Below, piece after piece: positions 1 through 6,800 of a stretch of DNA of 6,800 bases (positions within the stretch are counted from its first letter, which is position 1; the number at the start of each line of letters is the position of its first letter). The DNA is taken from the IMG/VR virus record IMGVR_UViG_2740892422_000007; one strand, 5' to 3'. Source of the stretch: a virus (taxonomy: Duplodnaviria > Heunggongvirae > Uroviricota > Caudoviricetes). The notes under the pieces were generated by a model. It did no database searches. It had not been told where the DNA came from and saw nothing but the letters and a program-made list of their open reading frames with translations. The translations under genes were made by a program, and so were the position numbers.

Positions 1-94
1 AGCTGAACAGGAGGGACAGCTGATAGAAACAGAAGCCACTGGAGCACCTCAAAAACACCATCATACACTAAATCAGTAAGTTGGCAGCATCACC
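1..94 (-). mobile_element. IS1 terminal fragment (left-end inverted repeat plus first 13 codons of insA); element continues leftward out of the window
   Basis: Bases 1-94 are the exact reverse complement of 6707-6800 (94/94). The motif GGTGATGCTGCCAACTTACTGAT matches the IS1 left terminus as I recall it. The minus strand of 1-39 reads GTG-initiated VASVSISCPSCSA, the InsA N-terminus. Identity stops exactly at 94/95. Confidence 0.85.
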
Positions 95-656
95 GCCATT
101 CAATATCCGGTGCAGTTGATGTATCAACACGGTTCAGCAACACCCGATACTTTTTCCAGGCTTCCAGCAACAAGGTTTCTTCCTCCGTTGCGATCTCCAG
201 ATCCACAGCATCCTGAAGCGGCGCTATATGCTCACTGGCTATCTGCATCAGGCTGTTTTTTGTTTCTTCCGCCTCCCGGATCCGGAACAGTTTTTCTGCT
301 TCCGTATCCTTCACCCAGGCTGTGCCGTTCCACTTCTGATATTCCCCTCCCGGCGATAACCAGGTAACATTTTCCGGTAACGGACCGAGTTCAGAAATAA
401 ATAACGCGTCGCCGGAAGCCACGTCATAAACCGTTTTACCCCGATGATCTTCAACGAGATGCCACGATGCCTCATCACTGTTGAAAACAGCCACGAAGCC
501 TGCCGGAATATCTGGCGGTGCAATATCGGTACTGTTTGCTGGCAGACCTGTATGAGGCGGAATATATGCGTCACCTTCACCAATAAATTCATTAGTTCCG
601 GCCAGCAGATTATAAATTTTTATGGTCCGTGGTTGTTCACTCATTCTGAATGCCAT
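90..656 (-). CDS. tfa: Tail fiber assembly protein Tfa (lambda-like), 188 aa, 3' end truncated by IS1
   Basis: ORF-track translation [48 protein letters not shown] matches lambdoid Tfa proteins from memory. The start overlaps the stf stop (TAATG on the minus strand at 654-658). The last native codon is W (96-98); the final R codon (93-95) and TGA stop (90-92) are supplied by the IS1 end. Confidence 0.88.
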
Positions 657-896
657 TACGCAAGCCTCACAATATAGTTAAATGCGATGTTTTTGACGGT
701 GTTTTCCGCGTTACCAGCAGCGTTAACGGTGATGGTATGTCCATGTGAACCAATCGCAACGGAGTGCGTATGAGCACCAATACCGACAGTATGTGCGTGT
801 GCACCTGCGCTTGCAGCAGTACCCGATACAGAGTGCGTATGAGCGCCTGCAGAAGAAGTGTTAACACTGTATTTAGAATAATCAGGTGATCCACTT
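656..896 (-). pseudogene. stf: Side tail fiber Stf, C-terminal ~80 codons only; 5' portion deleted
   Basis: The C-terminal 80 residues of track ORF 656..1132 read [81 protein letters not shown], with the repeated G(A/S)H(T/A)H motif and a terminal [11 protein letters not shown] typical of lambda Stf. The upstream 78 residues of that ORF are an out-of-frame read across the terminase fragment. No start codon or RBS exists for this fragment. Confidence 0.8.
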
Positions 897-1799
897 CCAG
901 ATCCCGGTCTTTTCGCAGATATAACGGGCATCAGTAAAGTCCAGCTCCTGCTGACGGATGACGCAGGCATTATGCTCACAGAGATAAAACACGCTGGAGG
1001 GATCATCCGGCATCCATTTGAGGCCAAACGGCGTCTCTTTGTCGCCAAATTTAAGGTACTGCTCCTTCCCGCAGTGCGGGCAGGCAACATGAAAACGCAT
1101 AAAATGCGGGGATTCACTGGCTGCACGCTCAATCTGGCAGGTGCCTCTCACTTTGGGCGTGGAGCCACGGATGGATTTTGGCCAGACAGAGCCTTCAATA
1201 CGCTTATCGCCCAGGAACGTCGGAGAGCCTTCCTGTTCAATATCCTCATCAAAGGCAGCAAGTTCATCATAACCCGCCACATCCACTGACTTTTCACGGT
1301 AGTTTTTTGCCGCTTTACCGCCCAGGCACCAGAAGCCACGCCCATTGGTGAAACGCTTCATGGTGAGCGTGTTATCCCGGTGCTTTTTGCCATACCACGG
1401 GGCCAGCGCCAGCAGCGAAGGAATATCACGGATGGTCGGCTCAACGTGGGTTTTCATAAAGTTCTCGGCATCACCATCCGTCGGCAACCAGATAAGTGTG
1501 TTGCGCTGCTTATGCTCTATGAAGTAGGCATAAACACCCAACAGCATTTTGGAATAACCAACACGGGCAGACTTCACCACATTCACCTCGCGGATGTAGT
1601 CGCTGCCCATCGCATTCATGATGGCCCGCTGAAAGGGCAGTGTTTCCCAGCGCCCTTCCTGGTATGCGGATTCTTTCGGGAGATAGTAATTGGCATCCGC
1701 CCATTCAACGGCGGTCTGTGGCTCCGGCCTGAACAGTGAGCGAAGCCCGGCGCGGACAAAATGCCGCAGCCTGTTAACCTGACTGTTCGATATATTCAC
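882..1799 (-). pseudogene. A: Terminase large subunit gpA, N-terminal 301 codons fused to 4 junk codons (KWIT) and a stop; nuclease and portal-binding C-terminal domains absent
   Basis: Translation MNISNSQVNRLRHFVRAGLRSLFRPEPQTAVEWADANYYLPKESAYQEGRWETLPFQRAIMNAMGSDYIREVNVVKSARVGYSKML is near-identical to lambda gpA from memory. Similarity ends after ...YICEKTGIW (codon 301, about base 897). Full-length gpA is about 641 aa. The 5' end overlaps nu1 by 26 nt, as in lambda. Confidence 0.88.
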
Positions 1800-2319
1800 T
1801 CAGCAACCCCGGTATCAGTTCATCCAGCGCGGCTGCTTTGTTCATGGCTTTGATGATATCCCGTTTCAGGAAATCAACATGTCGGTTTTCCAGTTCCGGA
1901 AAACGCCGCTGCACCGACAGGGGGATCCCGTCGAGAATACTGGCAATTTCACCTGCGATCCGCGACAGCACGAAAGTACAGAATGCGGTTTCCACCACTT
2001 CAGCGGAGTCTCTGGCATTTTTCAGCTCCTGTGCGTCGGCCTGCGCACGCGTAAGTCGATGGCGTTCGTACTCAATAGTCCCTGGCTGGAGATCTGTCTC
2101 GCTGGCCTGCCGCAGTTCTTCAACTTCCCGGCGCAGCTTTTCGTTCTCAATTTCAGCATCCCTTTCGGCATACCATTTTATGACGGCGGCAGAATCATAA
2201 AGCACCTCATTACCCTTGCCACCGCCTCGCAGAACGGGCATTCCCTGTTCCTGCCAGTTCTGAATGGTACGGATACTCGCACCGAAAATGTCAGCCAGCT
2301 GCTTTTTGTTGACTTCCAT
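1774..2319 (-). CDS. nu1: Terminase small subunit Nu1, 181 aa, apparently full length
   Basis: Translation MEVNKKQLADIFGASIRTIQNWQEQGMPVLRGGGKGNEVLYDSAAVIKWYAERDAEIENEKLRREVEELRQ... matches lambda Nu1 over its whole length apart from a few substitutions (from memory). Length and the 26-nt overlap with A are as in lambda. Confidence 0.92.
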   Translation of the reverse strand: MEVNKKQLADIFGASIRTIQNWQEQGMPVLRGGGKGNEVLYDSAAVIKWYAERDAEIENEKLRREVEELRQASETDLQPGTIEYERHRLTRAQADAQELKNARDSAEVVETAFCTFVLSRIAGEIASILDGIPLSVQRRFPELENRHVDFLKRDIIKAMNKAAALDELIPGLLSEYIEQSG

Positions 2320-2560
2320 TGTTCATTCCACGGACAAAAACAGAGAAAGGAAACGACAAAGGCCAAAAAGCCCGCTTTCAGCACCTGTCGTTTCCTTTCT
2401 TTTCAGGGGGTATTTTAAATAAAAACATTAAGTTACGACGAAGAAGAACGGAAACACCTTAAACCGGAAAATTTTCATAAATAGCGAAAACCCGCGAGGT
2501 CGCCGCCCCGTAACCTGTCGGATCACCGGAAAGGACCCGTAAAGTGATAATGATTATCAT
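2320..2560 (-). other. cos region: cosB with Nu1-binding R-element repeats, cosN, and the right-end/cosQ side
   Basis: It lies immediately upstream of nu1. The lambda 12-nt cohesive-end sequence GGGCGGCGACCT is present on the minus strand at 2497-2508. Perfect 14-bp inverted repeats GAAAGGAAACGACA (2345-2358) and TGTCGTTTCCTTTC (2386-2399) resemble cosB R elements, and a third CGTTTCC-type element sits near 2440-2452. A 15-bp palindrome TGATAATGATTATCA is at 2545-2559. Confidence 0.8.
2497..2508 (-). other. cosN cohesive-end core (GGGCGGCGACCT on the minus strand)
   Basis: Exact 12-mer match to the lambda cohesive end as recalled, about 190 nt upstream of the nu1 start codon, which is the lambda spacing. 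Confidence 0.75.
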
Positions 2561-2707
2561 CTACATATCACAACGTGCGTGGAGGCCATCAAACCACGTC
2601 AAATAATCAATTATGACGCAGGTATCGTATTAATTGATCTGCATCAACTTAACGTAAAAACAACTTCAGACAATACAAATCAGCGACACTGAATACGGGG
2701 CAACCTC

Positions 2708-2941
2708 ATGTCAACGAAGAACAGAACCCGCAGAACAACAACCCGCAACATCCGCTTTCCTAACCAAATGATTGAACAAATTAACATCGCTCTTGAGCAA
2801 AAAGGGTCCGGGAATTTCTCAGCCTGGGTCATTGAAGCCTGCCGCCGGAGACTGTGCTCAGAAAAAAGAGTTTCTTCTGAAGCAAACAAAGAAAAGAGTG
2901 ACATTACTGAATTGCTCAGAAAACAGGTCAGACCAGATTGA
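2708..2941 (+). CDS. Small ribbon-helix-helix-like DNA-binding protein, 77 aa, hypothetical
   Basis: Track ORF MSTKNRTRRTTTRNIRFPNQMIEQINIALEQKGSGNFSAWVIEACRRRL... has a basic N-terminus, a short strand-like NIRFP, then two helix-like segments, which is the Arc/MetJ/CopG pattern. Fold assignment is by eye only. Sits 42 bp upstream of, and on the same strand as, the DUF1398-like gene. Confidence 0.55.
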   Translation: MSTKNRTRRTTTRNIRFPNQMIEQINIALEQKGSGNFSAWVIEACRRRLCSEKRVSSEANKEKSDITELLRKQVRPD

Positions 2942-2998
2942 AGCAATTTAGATAATCGTGCAGACTACGCCCCCTCATATCACATGGAAGGTTTATCT

Positions 2999-3409
2999 AT
3001 GGATCAGGTAGTCATTTTTAAACAAATATTTGATAAAGTTCGAAACGATTTAAACTATCAATGGTTTTATTCTGAGCTAAAACGTCACAATGTCTCACAT
3101 TACATTTACTATTTAGCCACAGAGAATGTTCATATTGTATTAAAAAATGATAATACAGTGTTATTAAAGGGCCTAAAAAACATTGTGTCTGTCAAATTTT
3201 CAAAGGATAGGCATCTTATAGAAACGACCTCTAATAAGCTGAAATCCAGAGAGATCACATTTCAGGAATACAGAAGAAACCTTGCTAAAGCAGGAGTTTT
3301 TCGGTGGGTTACAAATATCCACGAACAAAAAAGATATTACTATACCTTTGATAATTCATTACTATTTACTGAAAGCATCCAGAAAACTACACAGATCTTA
3401 CCACGCTAA
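2999..3409 (+). CDS. DUF1398-like prophage protein (YbcV/YdfO-like), 136 aa from the ATG at 2999; track ORF begins at an upstream in-frame ATG at 2984
   Basis: Track ORF 2984..3409. The second ATG at 2999 is preceded by GGAAGG 9 nt upstream; the first ATG has no Shine-Dalgarno. Position next to cos/nu1 and a 136-aa length fit the YbcV/YdfO family from memory; family assignment not verified. Confidence 0.65.
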
Positions 3410-3418
3410 ACCATAACG

Positions 3419-3447
3419 TCCGGCTTCTCTCACTCCTGAGCCGGACT
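3419..3447 (+). terminator. Candidate stem-loop between the convergent DUF1398-like and Gns genes
   Basis: GTCCGGCT ... AGCCGGAC 8-bp inverted repeat with a 13-nt loop, 10 bp after the DUF1398-like stop. The downstream T-run is weak (TGCATTGGTTT). Confidence 0.3.
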
Positions 3448-3560
3448 GCATTGGTTTAATAAAAACCATCAACAATTGTGATTTAGATATTCGGAACCAT
3501 TCAAATATAACAAAACCCCGTAAAAACGAGGTTTATGGATAAATTTTATTATTGAATACA

Positions 3561-3734
3561 TCAGATTAAATTAATCTTGACATCATAGCTTTCAAGACCC
3601 GTCATTTTTTCCCGTGCGGTAAACTGAATACTGGTAACTTCTTTCCCGGTCTTTTTCTTAAGTTCAATAATTTTTTTTGTTATATATTCAGAAATATCTG
3701 CTTCTGCTTTTATTTTTAAGTTTTCAATATTCAT
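3561..3734 (-). CDS. Gns-family small protein (GnsA/GnsB-like), 57 aa; absent from the supplied ORF track
   Basis: Hand translation of the minus strand: MNIENLKIKAEADISEYITKKIIELKKKTGKEVTSIQFTAREKMTGLESYDVKINLI, then TGA at 3561-3563. Start ATG at 3732-3734 is preceded by AAGAGGAAA. Length and the REKMTGLESYDVKI segment match GnsA/GnsB as recalled. Confidence 0.7.
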   Translation of the reverse strand: MNIENLKIKAEADISEYITKKIIELKKKTGKEVTSIQFTAREKMTGLESYDVKINLI

Positions 3735-3782
3735 CATTTCCTCTTTTAGTCTGTTATGACTTTCCAGTTACACAGTAAGTCG

Positions 3783-3811
3783 ATTATATGGTGCAAACGT
3801 GTAAAAGATAA
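3783..3811 (-). promoter_or_regulatory. Candidate sigma70 promoter for the Gns gene
   Basis: Perfect TATAAT on the minus strand (plus 3783-3788), with a weak -35 TTATCT at 17-bp spacing (plus 3806-3811), about 45 nt upstream of the Gns start. Confidence 0.35.
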
Positions 3812-3905
3812 GATGAAACATCGCAATAATCAACATACGATAGTCTAAATTTTACACAAACAGACAAAGAGAATTTTCCTGAATTATCAATGCAATAGCA
3901 TCAAA

Positions 3906-4061
3906 TCAACTCAAGAGCCTTATTGCTGCTTCCAGAATTTCTTCTGAAGTAACATGTCGATCCGCGGCTACATAAATGACTTTATGATCTCCGGTCAGAG
4001 ATGGAAACCCTGCGGCCATTACAGTAAGGTGTGTTTTTTCGCCATTTGGATATTCACGCAT
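3906..4061 (-). CDS. Small hypothetical protein, 51 aa from the ATG at 4059-4061 (MREYPNGEKTHLTVMAAGFPSLTGDHKVIYVAADRHVTSEEILEAAIRLLS); in-frame extension possible to ATG 4134-4136 (76 aa) or the track's TTG at 4176-4178 (90 aa)
   Basis: Track ORF 3906..4178, which starts at TTG inside the cspI terminator hairpin, so that start is unlikely. The internal ATG at 4061 has GGAG about 11 nt upstream. The segment 4100-4136 contains A7 and T8 homopolymers. No family recognised. A 51-aa size fits the small ynfN-type gene found between gnsB and cspI in Qin, but that is memory of gene order only. Confidence 0.4.
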   Translation of the reverse strand: MREYPNGEKTHLTVMAAGFPSLTGDHKVIYVAADRHVTSEEILEAAIRLLS

Positions 4062-4180
4062 GATGGTGTTAACTCCAGTCATCGCTGGCACTACCACTGC
4101 TGGTTCAGAGTTAAAAAAAACTATGATTTTTTTCATGATGTTACCGTAGTATGTGAGTATCCATCGAATAGACACCAAGC

Positions 4181-4200
4181 AAAAAAGCTCCCGAAGGAGC
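4181..4200 (-). terminator. Rho-independent terminator downstream of the cspI-like gene
   Basis: GC stem GCTCC / GGAGC with CGAA tetraloop at 4187-4200. On the minus strand it is followed directly by TTTTTT (plus A6 at 4181-4186). On the plus strand it is followed by an interrupted T-rich run, so it may act in both directions. Confidence 0.55.
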
Positions 4201-4407
4201 CTTCATTTTCACTTTTTTAAATCCAACGACAGACGGCTGGCATTTAAGTATTGTGAAATATTATCAAATGTAATCATCATTGATTTACAAAAGATACATT
4301 TTGCCCCGAAAGGATTCATGTCAGAAACATCAAAAGATGATGTTCTATACTGGGAACCATGACAACACGGGCATCTAAAGTGAATATGGTTTGTAATATT
4401 GTCTACC

Positions 4408-4620
4408 TCAAAGCGCCACTACATGAACAGCGGCAGGACCTTTAGGTCCGTTCTCAATACCAAATTCAACTTCCTGATTCTCAGTTAATGTTTTGAAATC
4501 GTTGCTCTGAATTGCTGAGAAATGGACAAACACATCTTTGCTGCCATCTTTCGGCGTGATGAAACCAAAACCTTTTTCAGGGTTAAACCATTTCACTAAA
4601 CCAGTCATTTTGTTAGACAT
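4408..4620 (-). CDS. cspI: CspA-family cold shock protein, 70 aa, CspI-like
   Basis: Translation [70 protein letters not shown] carries the RNP1-like KGFGFI and RNP2-like VFVHF motifs. The [14 protein letters not shown] variant and the lysis-gene neighbourhood match Qin CspI as I recall it. Start context AAAGGTAATAATT-ATG resembles the cspA leader. Confidence 0.85.
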
Positions 4621-4735
4621 AATTATTACCTTTTGAAGAAATTAGCCCTTGGGCAGAATGGTCCGAAAAAAAATATCAGAGAGAAAAACCAACAAGGAAA
4701 TCTCAAGAGGTACAAATAATAAAATTATAACAATG
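4621..4735 (-). promoter_or_regulatory. Candidate cspI promoter (extended -10) and roughly 100-nt AT-rich 5' leader
   Basis: Minus-strand TGTTATAAT (plus 4724-4732) is a TGn-TATAAT extended -10. A long leader is characteristic of cspA-family genes. No experimental support. Confidence 0.4.
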
Positions 4736-4982
4736 ACTGCTTCAGATAAATTTGTAACAAACCAGAACACCATTAACGCATGATTAACCACCCATAGCAA
4801 GGATTACTTTTGTAAAGAAAAACACAGCAATGAAAGAATAGCTTTATTTATTAATAAAACGTGTCATTCTGATTAAGACCTTTTATCTTACCCTTAAGAT
4901 TTCAGGAATTTTGGCTCATGGAAGAGTCCTTTTTATTTAAATTTTACATTCCGCGATGTAAATGTTCCGATTTAATATTACC

Positions 4983-6006
<1,024 letters not shown>

Positions 6007-6010
<4 letters not shown>

Positions 6011-6318
6011 AGATATTTATGATGAGGACGCTCGTGCTTATTGGCAGGATTTTCAATCTTAAAGGAGTACTGATGCTGCAGATAAGACTCAACTTTTTCT
6101 GACAATTTTTCTGCTACTTCCAGGAAGACTTGCCGGACGCTCCTTCTGGCTGCTGCCTCATAAAACTCCAGCGCAGCTCCTTCAACACGGTCCATGGCGA
6201 CATCCAGGTCAAAAATTTCACCGTCAAAGCGTTCTTTGTCCTGTAAGGCTACAGTTACCGTAACTTTATTCTCAAAATTACGGACTCCTTTCACAACCAG
6301 TTCATAGTCTTGAGTCAT
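6007..6318 (-). CDS. DUF1327-like prophage protein (YdfR-like), 103 aa, function unknown
   Basis: Track ORF with strong RBS GAGGAGAG upstream of the ATG at 6316-6318. Its stop overlaps the endolysin start (ATGA at 6007-6010). Length and position between holin and endolysin match ydfR of Qin from memory; acidic, no transmembrane segment. Confidence 0.7.
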
Positions 6319-6322
6319 TGGA

Positions 6323-6538
6323 TTACTCTCCTCTCGCAGCCTTACGCCTGTCTTCTTTAATCTTGAAATAAAGATTTGTCAGATACGTCAGCAGGCCAAA
6401 AACCAGGCTACCCAGCACACCGATTGCAGCCCACTGTGACGGAGTTACTTTATCGAGTAACTGCAATGCCCAGAAACCAGCATTACCCGCCGATGTGCCA
6501 TAGGCAACACCTGTTGTTAACTTATCCATTGATTTCAT
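6323..6538 (-). CDS. S: Class II pinholin (S21-like) with dual-start motif, 71 aa (68 aa from the second start)
   Basis: Real start is [71 protein letters not shown]. Two in-frame ATGs at 6536-6538 and 6527-6529 are separated by K-S, RBS GGGGTGAGG lies upstream, and there are two transmembrane segments with a basic C-terminus. The track ORF's 25-residue N-terminal extension is a run-on, not coding. Confidence 0.85.
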
Positions 6539-6706
6539 ATCCTCACCCCGATGTACACGGATGGTGCAATATGTTTGAAAAGATCGGAGTCTACGGGGTA
6601 GTTTTGACAGCACACGTTGTTCTCAACGGCGCTAAAAAAACATACACATTAAAAATGTGGGTAATTATTTTGAAAGAAAGTCATATATAAAATAATAATA
6701 CGAGAA

Positions 6707-6800
6707 GGTGATGCTGCCAACTTACTGATTTAGTGTATGATGGTGTTTTTGAGGTGCTCCAGTGGCTTCTGTTTCTATCAGCTGTCCCTCCTGTTCAGCT
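6707..6800 (+). mobile_element. IS1 terminal fragment (left-end inverted repeat plus first 13 codons of insA); element continues rightward out of the window
   Basis: GGTGATGCTGCCAACTTACTGAT... begins at 6707. The 94 bp are the exact reverse complement of bases 1-94. GTG-initiated VASVSISCPSCSA reads on the plus strand from 6762. Confidence 0.85.

Follow-up and report, generated by a model that had tools for sequence, protein, structure and literature searches.

A deletion scar joining terminase and tail-fibre remnants in the cryptic prophage Qin of one Escherichia coli lineage

Introduction

Fragments of the terminase large subunit gene (A) that lie beside tail-fibre genes are already known in kind from Escherichia coli K-12, where aaaD and stfQ are examples. 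In the cryptic prophage Qin of that strain (tfaQ-stfQ-nohA, b1546-b1548), no head or tail genes remain to separate the packaging genes from the tail-fibre tip, and the scar that remains joins 3 codons of A in frame to 317 codons of stf, with the 3' end of nohA altered. In prophage DLP12, aaaD (b4634), which is annotated as a pseudogene, is an N-terminal fragment of the lambda-A type that lies behind nohD; it holds 103 codons of A and adjoins the tail-fibre assembly gene tfaD. A literature search on aaaD and nohD returned only unrelated acronyms. Phage lambda, in the order nu1-A...stf-tfa, has the same end modules with the intervening genes in place. Remnants of this kind are recombination partners of lambda (PMC3945230), and the size of Qin varies widely among 189 strains (PMC6379469).

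Here we describe a further arrangement, found in a stretch of 6,800 nt that we call the window throughout. An original prediction had read in it an internal deletion fusing codon 301 of A to the 3' end of stf. The window is like K-12 Qin in its prophage, its gene order and its chromosomal site, and its head and tail genes are likewise gone; it differs from K-12 in holding 301 codons of A and 80 of stf, out of frame with one another, in carrying another stf allele at the scar and in having two IS1 insertions. From aaaD it differs in prophage and locus, in the length of the A fragment and in the neighbour of that fragment, which is a tail of stf rather than tfaD. Our analysis suggests that the join is very probably a deletion scar in the Qin late operon, made at a short microhomology between two pieces of non-functional debris, and most simply explained as the last step of a stepwise erosion.

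Results and discussion

The window as a part of Qin

The window corresponds to the whole of a draft contig (GCA_000754855.1, JRGC01000019.1; locus L011), which is cut by IS1 at both ends. On gene content and order we assign it to the E. coli cryptic prophage Qin, from a truncated tfaQ (tfaQ') to essQ. Over 4.9 kb (window 1791-6706) it is 99.76% identical to K-12 Qin, and its minus-strand gene order, tfaQ'-stf'-A'-nohA-cos-ynfO-ydfO-gnsB-ynfN-cspI-rzpQ-rrrQ-ydfR-essQ, matches that of the late and moron region there. The chromosomal site, which IS1 cuts away from the window itself, could be read from a 59.7-kb contig, L005, that has the same junction and is 99.985% identical to the window over positions 95-6706. 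L005 runs on into pinQ-ydfK-ydfJ-ydfI-rspR-ydfG-dcp, the K-12 chromosomal flank of Qin, and so places the locus beside ydfJ and ydfK-pinQ.

The IS1 end at 1..94 (minus strand) is insA-proximal, with the rest of the element lying to the left of the window, and it truncates tfaQ. The second, at 6707..6800 (plus strand), is the insA-proximal end of another copy, inverted relative to the first and inserted between essQ and ynfU. The two arms, which bracket a segment of 6.6 kb, are 94-nt perfect inverted copies of each other (100% complementary) and match the insA-side end of K-12 IS1A at every position. At the point of the first insertion tfaQ is uninterrupted in K-12 and in L005, and the insertion between essQ and ynfU is missing from the other junction-bearing contigs that reach past that point.

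Three features frame the junction. The tail-fibre assembly gene tfaQ' (95..656, minus strand) has lost its last 14 nt to IS1, such that the mechanically called ORF 90-656 terminates within the element; it matches Pfam Caudo_TAP (E 4e-41), is 94% identical to lambda tfa and is collinear with K-12 tfaQ. On the other side, nohA (1774..2319, minus strand) is an intact homologue of Nu1, the terminase small subunit, of 181 aa; it covers the full Phage_Nu1 profile (E 4e-101) and is annotated as nohA in relatives. Beyond it lies cosN, the 12-nt cohesive-end sequence (2497..2508, minus strand), recognised as the exact reverse complement of GGGCGGCGACCT at 2497. Homology to the left and right ends of lambda is contiguous across cosN, and window 2509-2870 matches lambda 48502-48141 at 98.3%. 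Identity to lambda is about 98% for cos and nohA, both of which are intact.

The terminase fragment

Between nohA and the junction lies A', which comprises codons 1-301 of a lambda-type terminase large subunit gene (896..1799, minus strand). Lambda nt 1614-1 align with window 896-2508 at 97.6% nucleotide identity, a match that takes in cos, nu1 and the part of A that ends with base 1 of codon 302, since lambda gene A starts at nt 711. The ORF at 882-1799 (minus strand) ends ...CEKTGIW, with KTGIW as residues 297-301, and is followed by KWIT and a TGA stop (882..895, minus strand), which are read out of frame from stf DNA; the product thus ends at residue 305. The abrupt end of gpA similarity after 301 codons was therefore correctly placed in the original prediction.

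A functional gpA, of about 641 aa in total, has an N-terminal ATPase domain with a Walker A motif and a catalytic glutamate, an endonuclease domain and a portal-binding C-terminus. The only domain that Pfam finds in A' is GpA_ATPase (PF05876; residues 47-285, E 2.2e-51). The stretch KSARVGYS at residues 76-83 and the residue E179, which on the lambda literature we take to be the Walker A motif and the catalytic glutamate, are both kept. The nuclease domain PF20454, found at residues 322-600 of lambda gpA, has no Pfam match in A', and the C-terminus is absent. The predicted domain content (an ATPase region, no nuclease) thus agrees with what we found. Relative to lambda A, A' has 23 synonymous and 3 non-synonymous codon differences, a count that reflects divergence between working phages and is uninformative on present selection in the remnant.

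The 305-aa product is labelled 'phage terminase large subunit family protein' at NCBI, with no pseudogene flag, which would suit a naturally short, complete terminase-family gene lying next to an unrelated, merely stf-like stretch. We regard that reading as next to impossible. The DNA follows lambda A to the very end of the homology and then gives four unrelated codons and a stop; lambda, and those relatives that have a longer A, continue in frame past codon 301; the nuclease domain and C-terminus that a complete gene would bring are those found missing above; and the DNA that follows matches the 3' ends of tail-fibre genes.

The stf remnant

That following DNA is the last 80 codons and the stop of stf (656..898, minus strand), identified by translation and by matches to lambda and other phages. 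It has no start codon of its own, is read in a frame different from that of A and ends ...NYIVRLA*, the same C-terminus as lambda Stf. Lambda 22534-21824, which covers tfa and the 3' end of stf, aligns with window 95-805 at 94%; the roughly 200 nt above the stf stop are 89-98% identical to the 3' ends of tail-fibre genes in intact lambdoid phages; and the translation matches the Pfam Phage_fiber repeat (20.8 bits). The stf tail differs from that of strain PE164 by 2 mismatches in 243 nt, and the longer Stf C-terminus of PE164 is in turn 86% identical, over 168 aa, to the side tail fibre proteins of PhiR29_1/2 and 2H10. These results bear out the prediction that about 80 terminal residues of Stf lie downstream in another frame, and they run against the possibility, which the prediction had itself named as fatal to it, that the stretch is not derived from stf.

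What has been kept is the conserved C-terminal tip, directly adjoining tfa. A complete Stf gene has its own start and encodes both an N-terminal attachment region and a collar domain. With 80 codons and no start the window falls short of this, and the Collar domain, which is present in a 601-aa relative discussed below, is absent from it.

Anatomy of the junction

Base-by-base alignment, with PE164 on both sides and with lambda A, showed that the stf-side match ends at 898 and that the A-side match begins at 896. The junction is thus a 3-bp microhomology at 896..898, which reads TCC on the plus strand and GGA on the coding strand. These three bases are all that the parental sequences have in common at this point, and neither inserted DNA nor the end of a mobile element lies at the join. 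TCC is found at both sites in PE164, K_EC180, GmM062 and EC26, and in a single copy in the window. Alignment across the breakpoint, as the prediction had proposed, thus fixed it to within three bases.

Measured against lambda, nt 1615 to about 21,750 are gone, some 20.1 kb that hold the rest of A with its nuclease domain, W to J, lom and most of stf; the loss of about 20 kb of head and tail genes that had been predicted is accordingly real as a comparison with lambda. Measured against PE164, the window differs by one 410-bp deletion. Because 410 bp is 2 modulo 3 (3x136+2), the A frame meets a stop four codons past the join, whereas PE164 reads through in an ORF of 517 aa. The word 'fusing' in the original prediction therefore holds for the DNA, in which A and stf are juxtaposed at a deletion junction, and fails for the protein: the frames differ, and no fusion product would be made.

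A short direct repeat of which one copy is kept, at a clean join, has the signature of an illegitimate, microhomology-mediated deletion, and we infer that the junction arose in this way, whether by replication slippage or by end joining. A microhomology of 3 bp is too slight to tell much about the pathway. At the other scars of the locus the microhomologies are 1-8 bp long, which would fit one class of event.

Distribution of the junction

The exact 305-aa product was found on 23 contigs, all labelled E. coli. We fetched ten contigs that carry it, from NCBI assemblies and from Logan assemblies of SRA runs, and all ten have an identical 81-nt junction. They are about 99.98% identical to the window, with 0-2 base differences over up to 6.7 kb, and therefore represent one clone. 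Assemblies with the junction are, besides that of the window, GCA_958327665.1, GCA_011077305.1, GCA_022973375.1, GCA_013133275.1, GCA_958303215.1 and GCA_012617785.1. Such recurrence also speaks to the idea that the junction is an artefact, a chimeric contig in which a short-read assembler joined two prophage regions. The window is indeed a short draft contig with a repeat (IS1) at each end. Assemblies made independently agree on the junction, however, including the 59.7-kb contig with its normal flanks, and the 3 bp shared at the join are far below what misleads an assembler; we give this idea practically no weight.

None of 5,426 complete E. coli genomes matched a 120-nt junction-spanning probe contiguously; full coverage was reached in only three cases, each a match in two pieces of the PE164 type. 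Nor did a search for the exact 45 nt of the junction yield a match in a collection of species-representative genomes. L005 has the junction and lacks the IS1 in tfaQ, from which it follows that the deletion is older than that insertion.

The junction is confined, as an allele, to a single clonal lineage of E. coli; it is recent, and it is not ancestral to Qin. The original prediction had raised the prospect of an ancestral junction, to be recognised by its presence in relatives, and the survey of relatives answered against it. With no occurrence in the 5,426 complete genomes and no variation among the carriers found, the junction makes a clean clonal marker.

Other scars at the nohA-tfaQ locus

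At least ten other scars lie between nohA and tfaQ in other strains, and we express their A-side end points as lambda nt. The K-12 scar ends at 719, leaving codons 1-3 of A, with the consequence that stfQ begins on the A start codon. In O15_8X, A ends at 1647 and is joined to Z nt 8064, with Z'-U-V kept; NCCP12480 has this scar in common with O15_8X and has lost more. PE164 (1758), K_EC180 (2197) and WP2-S18-ESBL-08 (2268) each pass from A into stf. The VE-V11-M type ends at 1760, at an 8-bp microhomology, and has an in-frame ORF of 601 aa. In GmM062, A ends at 1879 and is joined to stf nt 19848, leaving a near-full stf. Strain 1303 keeps A to 1944 (A 1-411), joined to E nt 6683, and retains E', FI, FII, Z' and a full stf of 1,116 aa; EC26 shares the scar at 1944 and has an additional FI'::stf deletion. 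With 50-nt junction probes against complete genomes we counted 359 genomes of the K-12 type, 45 of the VE-V11-M type and 3 of the PE164 type.

The A remnant thus ranges across Qin alleles from 3 to 519 codons, and the alleles do not form a single series. K-12 has more stf and less A than WP2-S18-ESBL-08, so neither scar can be derived from the other, and 1303 and O15_8X have kept different fragments of the head and tail genes. Since the alleles cannot be derived from one another and retain different fragments, the late region of Qin was largely present when the lineages split and was lost in parallel. Stepwise loss is seen directly twice, from 1303 to EC26 and from O15_8X to NCCP12480. On these comparisons the head and tail genes of Qin were demonstrably lost piecemeal and independently, not by a single ancestral event.

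We had considered that the 20-kb loss was one ancestral event at codon 350 of A, and we dropped this idea on finding alleles at the locus in which parts of E, FI, FII, Z, U or V survive. The same alleles bear on the original prediction, which had one deletion remove the whole block: the loss relative to lambda stands, and it need not go back to a single event. An intact late region at this locus was found in none of the top-matching complete genomes. Set in order, the scars trace the loss of a prophage late region through many steps, small and large, taken in parallel by different lineages.

Origin of the junction in the window

In each of five less eroded relatives that share the stf-tail allele of the window, the break maps to the identical two sites. 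The DNA missing from the window amounts to 410 bp relative to PE164, 1,471 bp to EC26, 2,157 bp to K_EC180, 3,174 bp to GmM062 and 4,880 bp to strain 1303. The junction is nested inside all five alleles, any one of which could in principle have been the precursor.

The two sides of the window have different nearest relatives. Positions 896-2193, which hold A' and most of nohA, show 0 mismatches to VE-V11-M and are 2-3% off every other allele; on the stf side the nearest relative is PE164; and the remainder of the window is near-identical to K-12 and the 1303 group. Among the complete genomes none joins the A' allele of the window with its stf allele, so that the locus is a recombinational mosaic. 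Gene conversion from DLP12 was considered as a source of the A' allele and rejected, because A' is only 97.6-97.7% identical to the DLP12 alleles. In other strains the remnants within DLP12 differ yet again.

Both nearest relatives are scarred at codon 350 of A. Their alleles encode in-frame gpA(1-350)::Stf ORFs (601 aa in VE-V11-M, 517 aa in PE164) at the same locus as the window, with an identical A' allele in the former and a near-identical stf tail in the latter; they differ from the window in carrying A to codon 350 and in remaining in frame. These alleles are probably either ancestral to that of the window or its sisters. As both neighbours already have the codon-350 scar, a small secondary deletion offers the simplest history: an older scar would have joined codon 350 of A to stf; a frame-shifting deletion, of 410 bp in the PE164 geometry, would then have occurred at TCC within that scar; and IS1 would have entered tfaQ once the junction had formed.

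The alternative is an origin in one step, in which an intact, lambda-like Qin lost about 20 kb through a single deletion that joined A codon 301 to the 3' end of stf and removed everything from W to most of stf. There is a lone scar between nohA and tfaQ, for which one event is the minimum, and a large deletion of an intact or much less eroded Qin would leave an identical single scar. Deletions of 5-18 kb did occur in other lineages, from A nt 1879 to stf nt 19848 in GmM062 (about 18 kb) and from A nt 1944 to E nt 6683 in 1303, and the different head and tail fragments kept by different lineages imply an ancestor of Qin that had most of the late region at the split. Against this, VE-V11-M and PE164 had already lost their head and tail genes, with scars at codon 350; PE164 differs from the window by exactly the one 410-bp deletion; the top-matching complete genomes are without an intact late region; and stepwise erosion is documented twice at this very locus. 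We therefore think a one-step origin rather unlikely, while keeping it in view, and rate the small secondary deletion as the likelier last step.

A recurrence of deletion end points

The A-side end points of the scars may not be scattered at random. Gene A has only three GGATAC sites, and two of them account for four of about twelve end points. Three of the four, drawn from Qin and DLP12, fall at nt 1753-1760 and differ from one another in their stf partner; the fourth is at nt 2264-2268. In addition, CCACTTCC, where the window breaks on the stf side, recurs as an end point in a nu1::stf scar in the DLP12 of strain S43. It is conceivable, at long odds, that the scars are sequence-directed, arising through breakage and rejoining rather than through descent and coincidence, and, as a separate matter, that cos-nohA-A' could affect superinfecting phages. 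Were sequence direction to prove true, these cryptic prophages would preserve the trace of one particular mechanism of deletion.

Two candidate explanations for the clustering were rejected. Microhomology length does not account for it: the 8-bp repeat GGGATACG is unexceptional among A/stf matches, which include three of 9 bp and about thirteen of 8 bp. Nor is the cluster at A nt 1753-1760 well explained by a pseudo-crossover site used by an invertase of the Pin type. We inspected the vicinity of the cluster by eye against the gix/hix consensus for invertase crossover sites, and saw one half-site-like stretch only, 16-20 nt off; the stf partners, moreover, differ. A paper on PinQ concerns inversion in prophage e14, makes no mention of stfQ, tfaQ or nohA and has no bearing on the junction (PMC12529663).

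Function of the remnants

The frames are offset, the A' frame runs for only four foreign codons before its stop, and no start precedes the stf tail; both remnants appear to be pseudogene debris, neither of them able to make a working protein. In addition, the second IS1 copy sits between essQ and the Q / pR' promoter region upstream, and this insertion together with the frame shift suggests that the late genes are silent in the strain.

One could nonetheless propose that cos-nohA-A' is a working module under selection, either as a decoy that poisons the terminase of a superinfecting lambdoid phage or as a handle by which a helper phage packages adjacent DNA. The intact cos and nohA and the ATPase residues kept in A' (Walker A and E179) are in keeping with this, and nu1 of DLP12 is functional in lambda recombinants, in which cos cutting stimulates exchange (PMC3945230). 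The comparison among alleles speaks strongly the other way. With remnants of anything from 3 to 519 codons in Qin, no length of A' is conserved; the DLP12 copy in strain S43 is without part of nu1; the low non-synonymous count is a legacy of phage divergence rather than of selection on the remnant; and IS1 parts the late genes from their promoter region in this strain. We find such a module highly improbable, and prefer to treat the remnants as debris.

Consequences for annotation

The junction by itself is of limited importance. It adds one allele to those of a defective prophage that is well known, and public databases already list its product under a generic terminase name. It does carry a warning for annotation, which extends to the relatives: A', the in-frame gpA::Stf ORFs, which RefSeq labels 'terminase large subunit family protein', and K-12 stfQ are scars, not genes. 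The 158-aa ORF at 656-1132 in the mechanical list is simply the stf frame extended back through A'.

Recombination at the Qin locus

We compared the window, in which gene A codon 301 abuts the last 80 codons of stf, with other Qin loci. Window positions 896-2193, comprising A' (codons 1-301 of terminase gene A) and most of the Nu1 homologue nohA, are 100% identical to strain VE-V11-M; all other Qin alleles examined show 18-27 differences per 904 nt of A'. Outside 896-2193 the sequence matches K-12 almost exactly and is distant from VE-V11-M. Judged from these alignments, the Qin locus of the window is a recombinational mosaic.

Annotated genes that span deletion scars

The K-12 gene stfQ (L004:6886-7848) uses the start codon of terminase gene A and opens with A codons 1-3, and the final codons of K-12 nohA (L004:7799-8368; 189 aa, versus 181) are encoded by stf-derived DNA; both annotated "genes" therefore cross a deletion scar. 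In-frame scars that join gpA(1-350) to the C-terminus of Stf likewise produce long ORFs, one of 601 aa, of the VE-V11-M type (L003:6057-7862), present in 45 complete genomes, and one of 517 aa, of the PE164 type (L002:6057-7610), present in 3. RefSeq names both "phage terminase large subunit family protein", with no pseudogene flag.

Several scar end points within gene A coincide with a short motif. Gene A contains three GGATAC sites in total, and two of them, at lambda A nt 1753-1760 and 2264-2268, hold 4 of approximately 12 A-side end points (L016:3756, L003:6813-6820, L002:6563-6566 and L015:3466). The three end points at nt 1753-1760 are joined to three different stf partners, and both Qin and the cryptic prophage DLP12 are represented among them. 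Microhomology length does not account for this pattern, because the 8-bp repeat is one among many.

On the stf side, the CCACTTCC site is the end point of both the window junction and a nu1(118 aa)::stf scar in strain S43 (L018:4058-4062). Compared with window 891-899 and 1990-1994, the S43 scar could have arisen from a window-type allele through the loss of 1,095 bp between TTCCA repeats. We note that the S43 scar is located in DLP12 and the window junction in Qin.

Truncated gpA also occurs as a 298-aa protein (P0003) ending in ...DFTDAR(292)VMLPTY*, found on 29 contigs, one of which is a 4.6-Mb chromosome; its C-terminus indicates a further, separate scar that would lie near A codon 292. 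The least eroded Qin forms seen were those of E. coli 1303 and O15_8X. Strain 1303 (L025:10001-16600) retains intact FI and FII together with a full-length, 1,116-aa stf adjoining tfaQ-pinQ. In O15_8X (L023:862-4676), U is still intact, and an ORF of 663 aa carries the annotation tail tube protein; we infer this ORF to be a V::Stf fusion because its lambda matches follow V up to nt 9425, where the V match stops, and then continue in stf.

Other features of the window

The window carries a complete lambda-type cos region (2497-2870), with the 12-nt cohesive-end sequence at 2497-2508, across which homology to the left and right ends of lambda is contiguous (~98%).

Both contig ends (1-94 and 6707-6800) are insA-proximal ends of IS1, mutually inverted, and bracket 6.6 kb from tfaQ' to essQ. 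The left insertion, which removed the last 14 nt of tfaQ, is common to the window and contigs L006 and L014; the right insertion, between essQ and ynfU, was found in the window's assembly only. The bracketed segment could be in place, inverted through IS1, or a composite-transposon-like unit; because the contig terminates in IS1 repeats, the window alone is compatible with all three arrangements.

Two Rfam families matched the minus strand above their gathering scores: the cspA thermoregulator (4381-4766), whose span covers most of the cspI ORF (4408-4620) plus approximately 150 nt 5' of cspI, and IS009 (115-313), within the 3' half of tfaQ.
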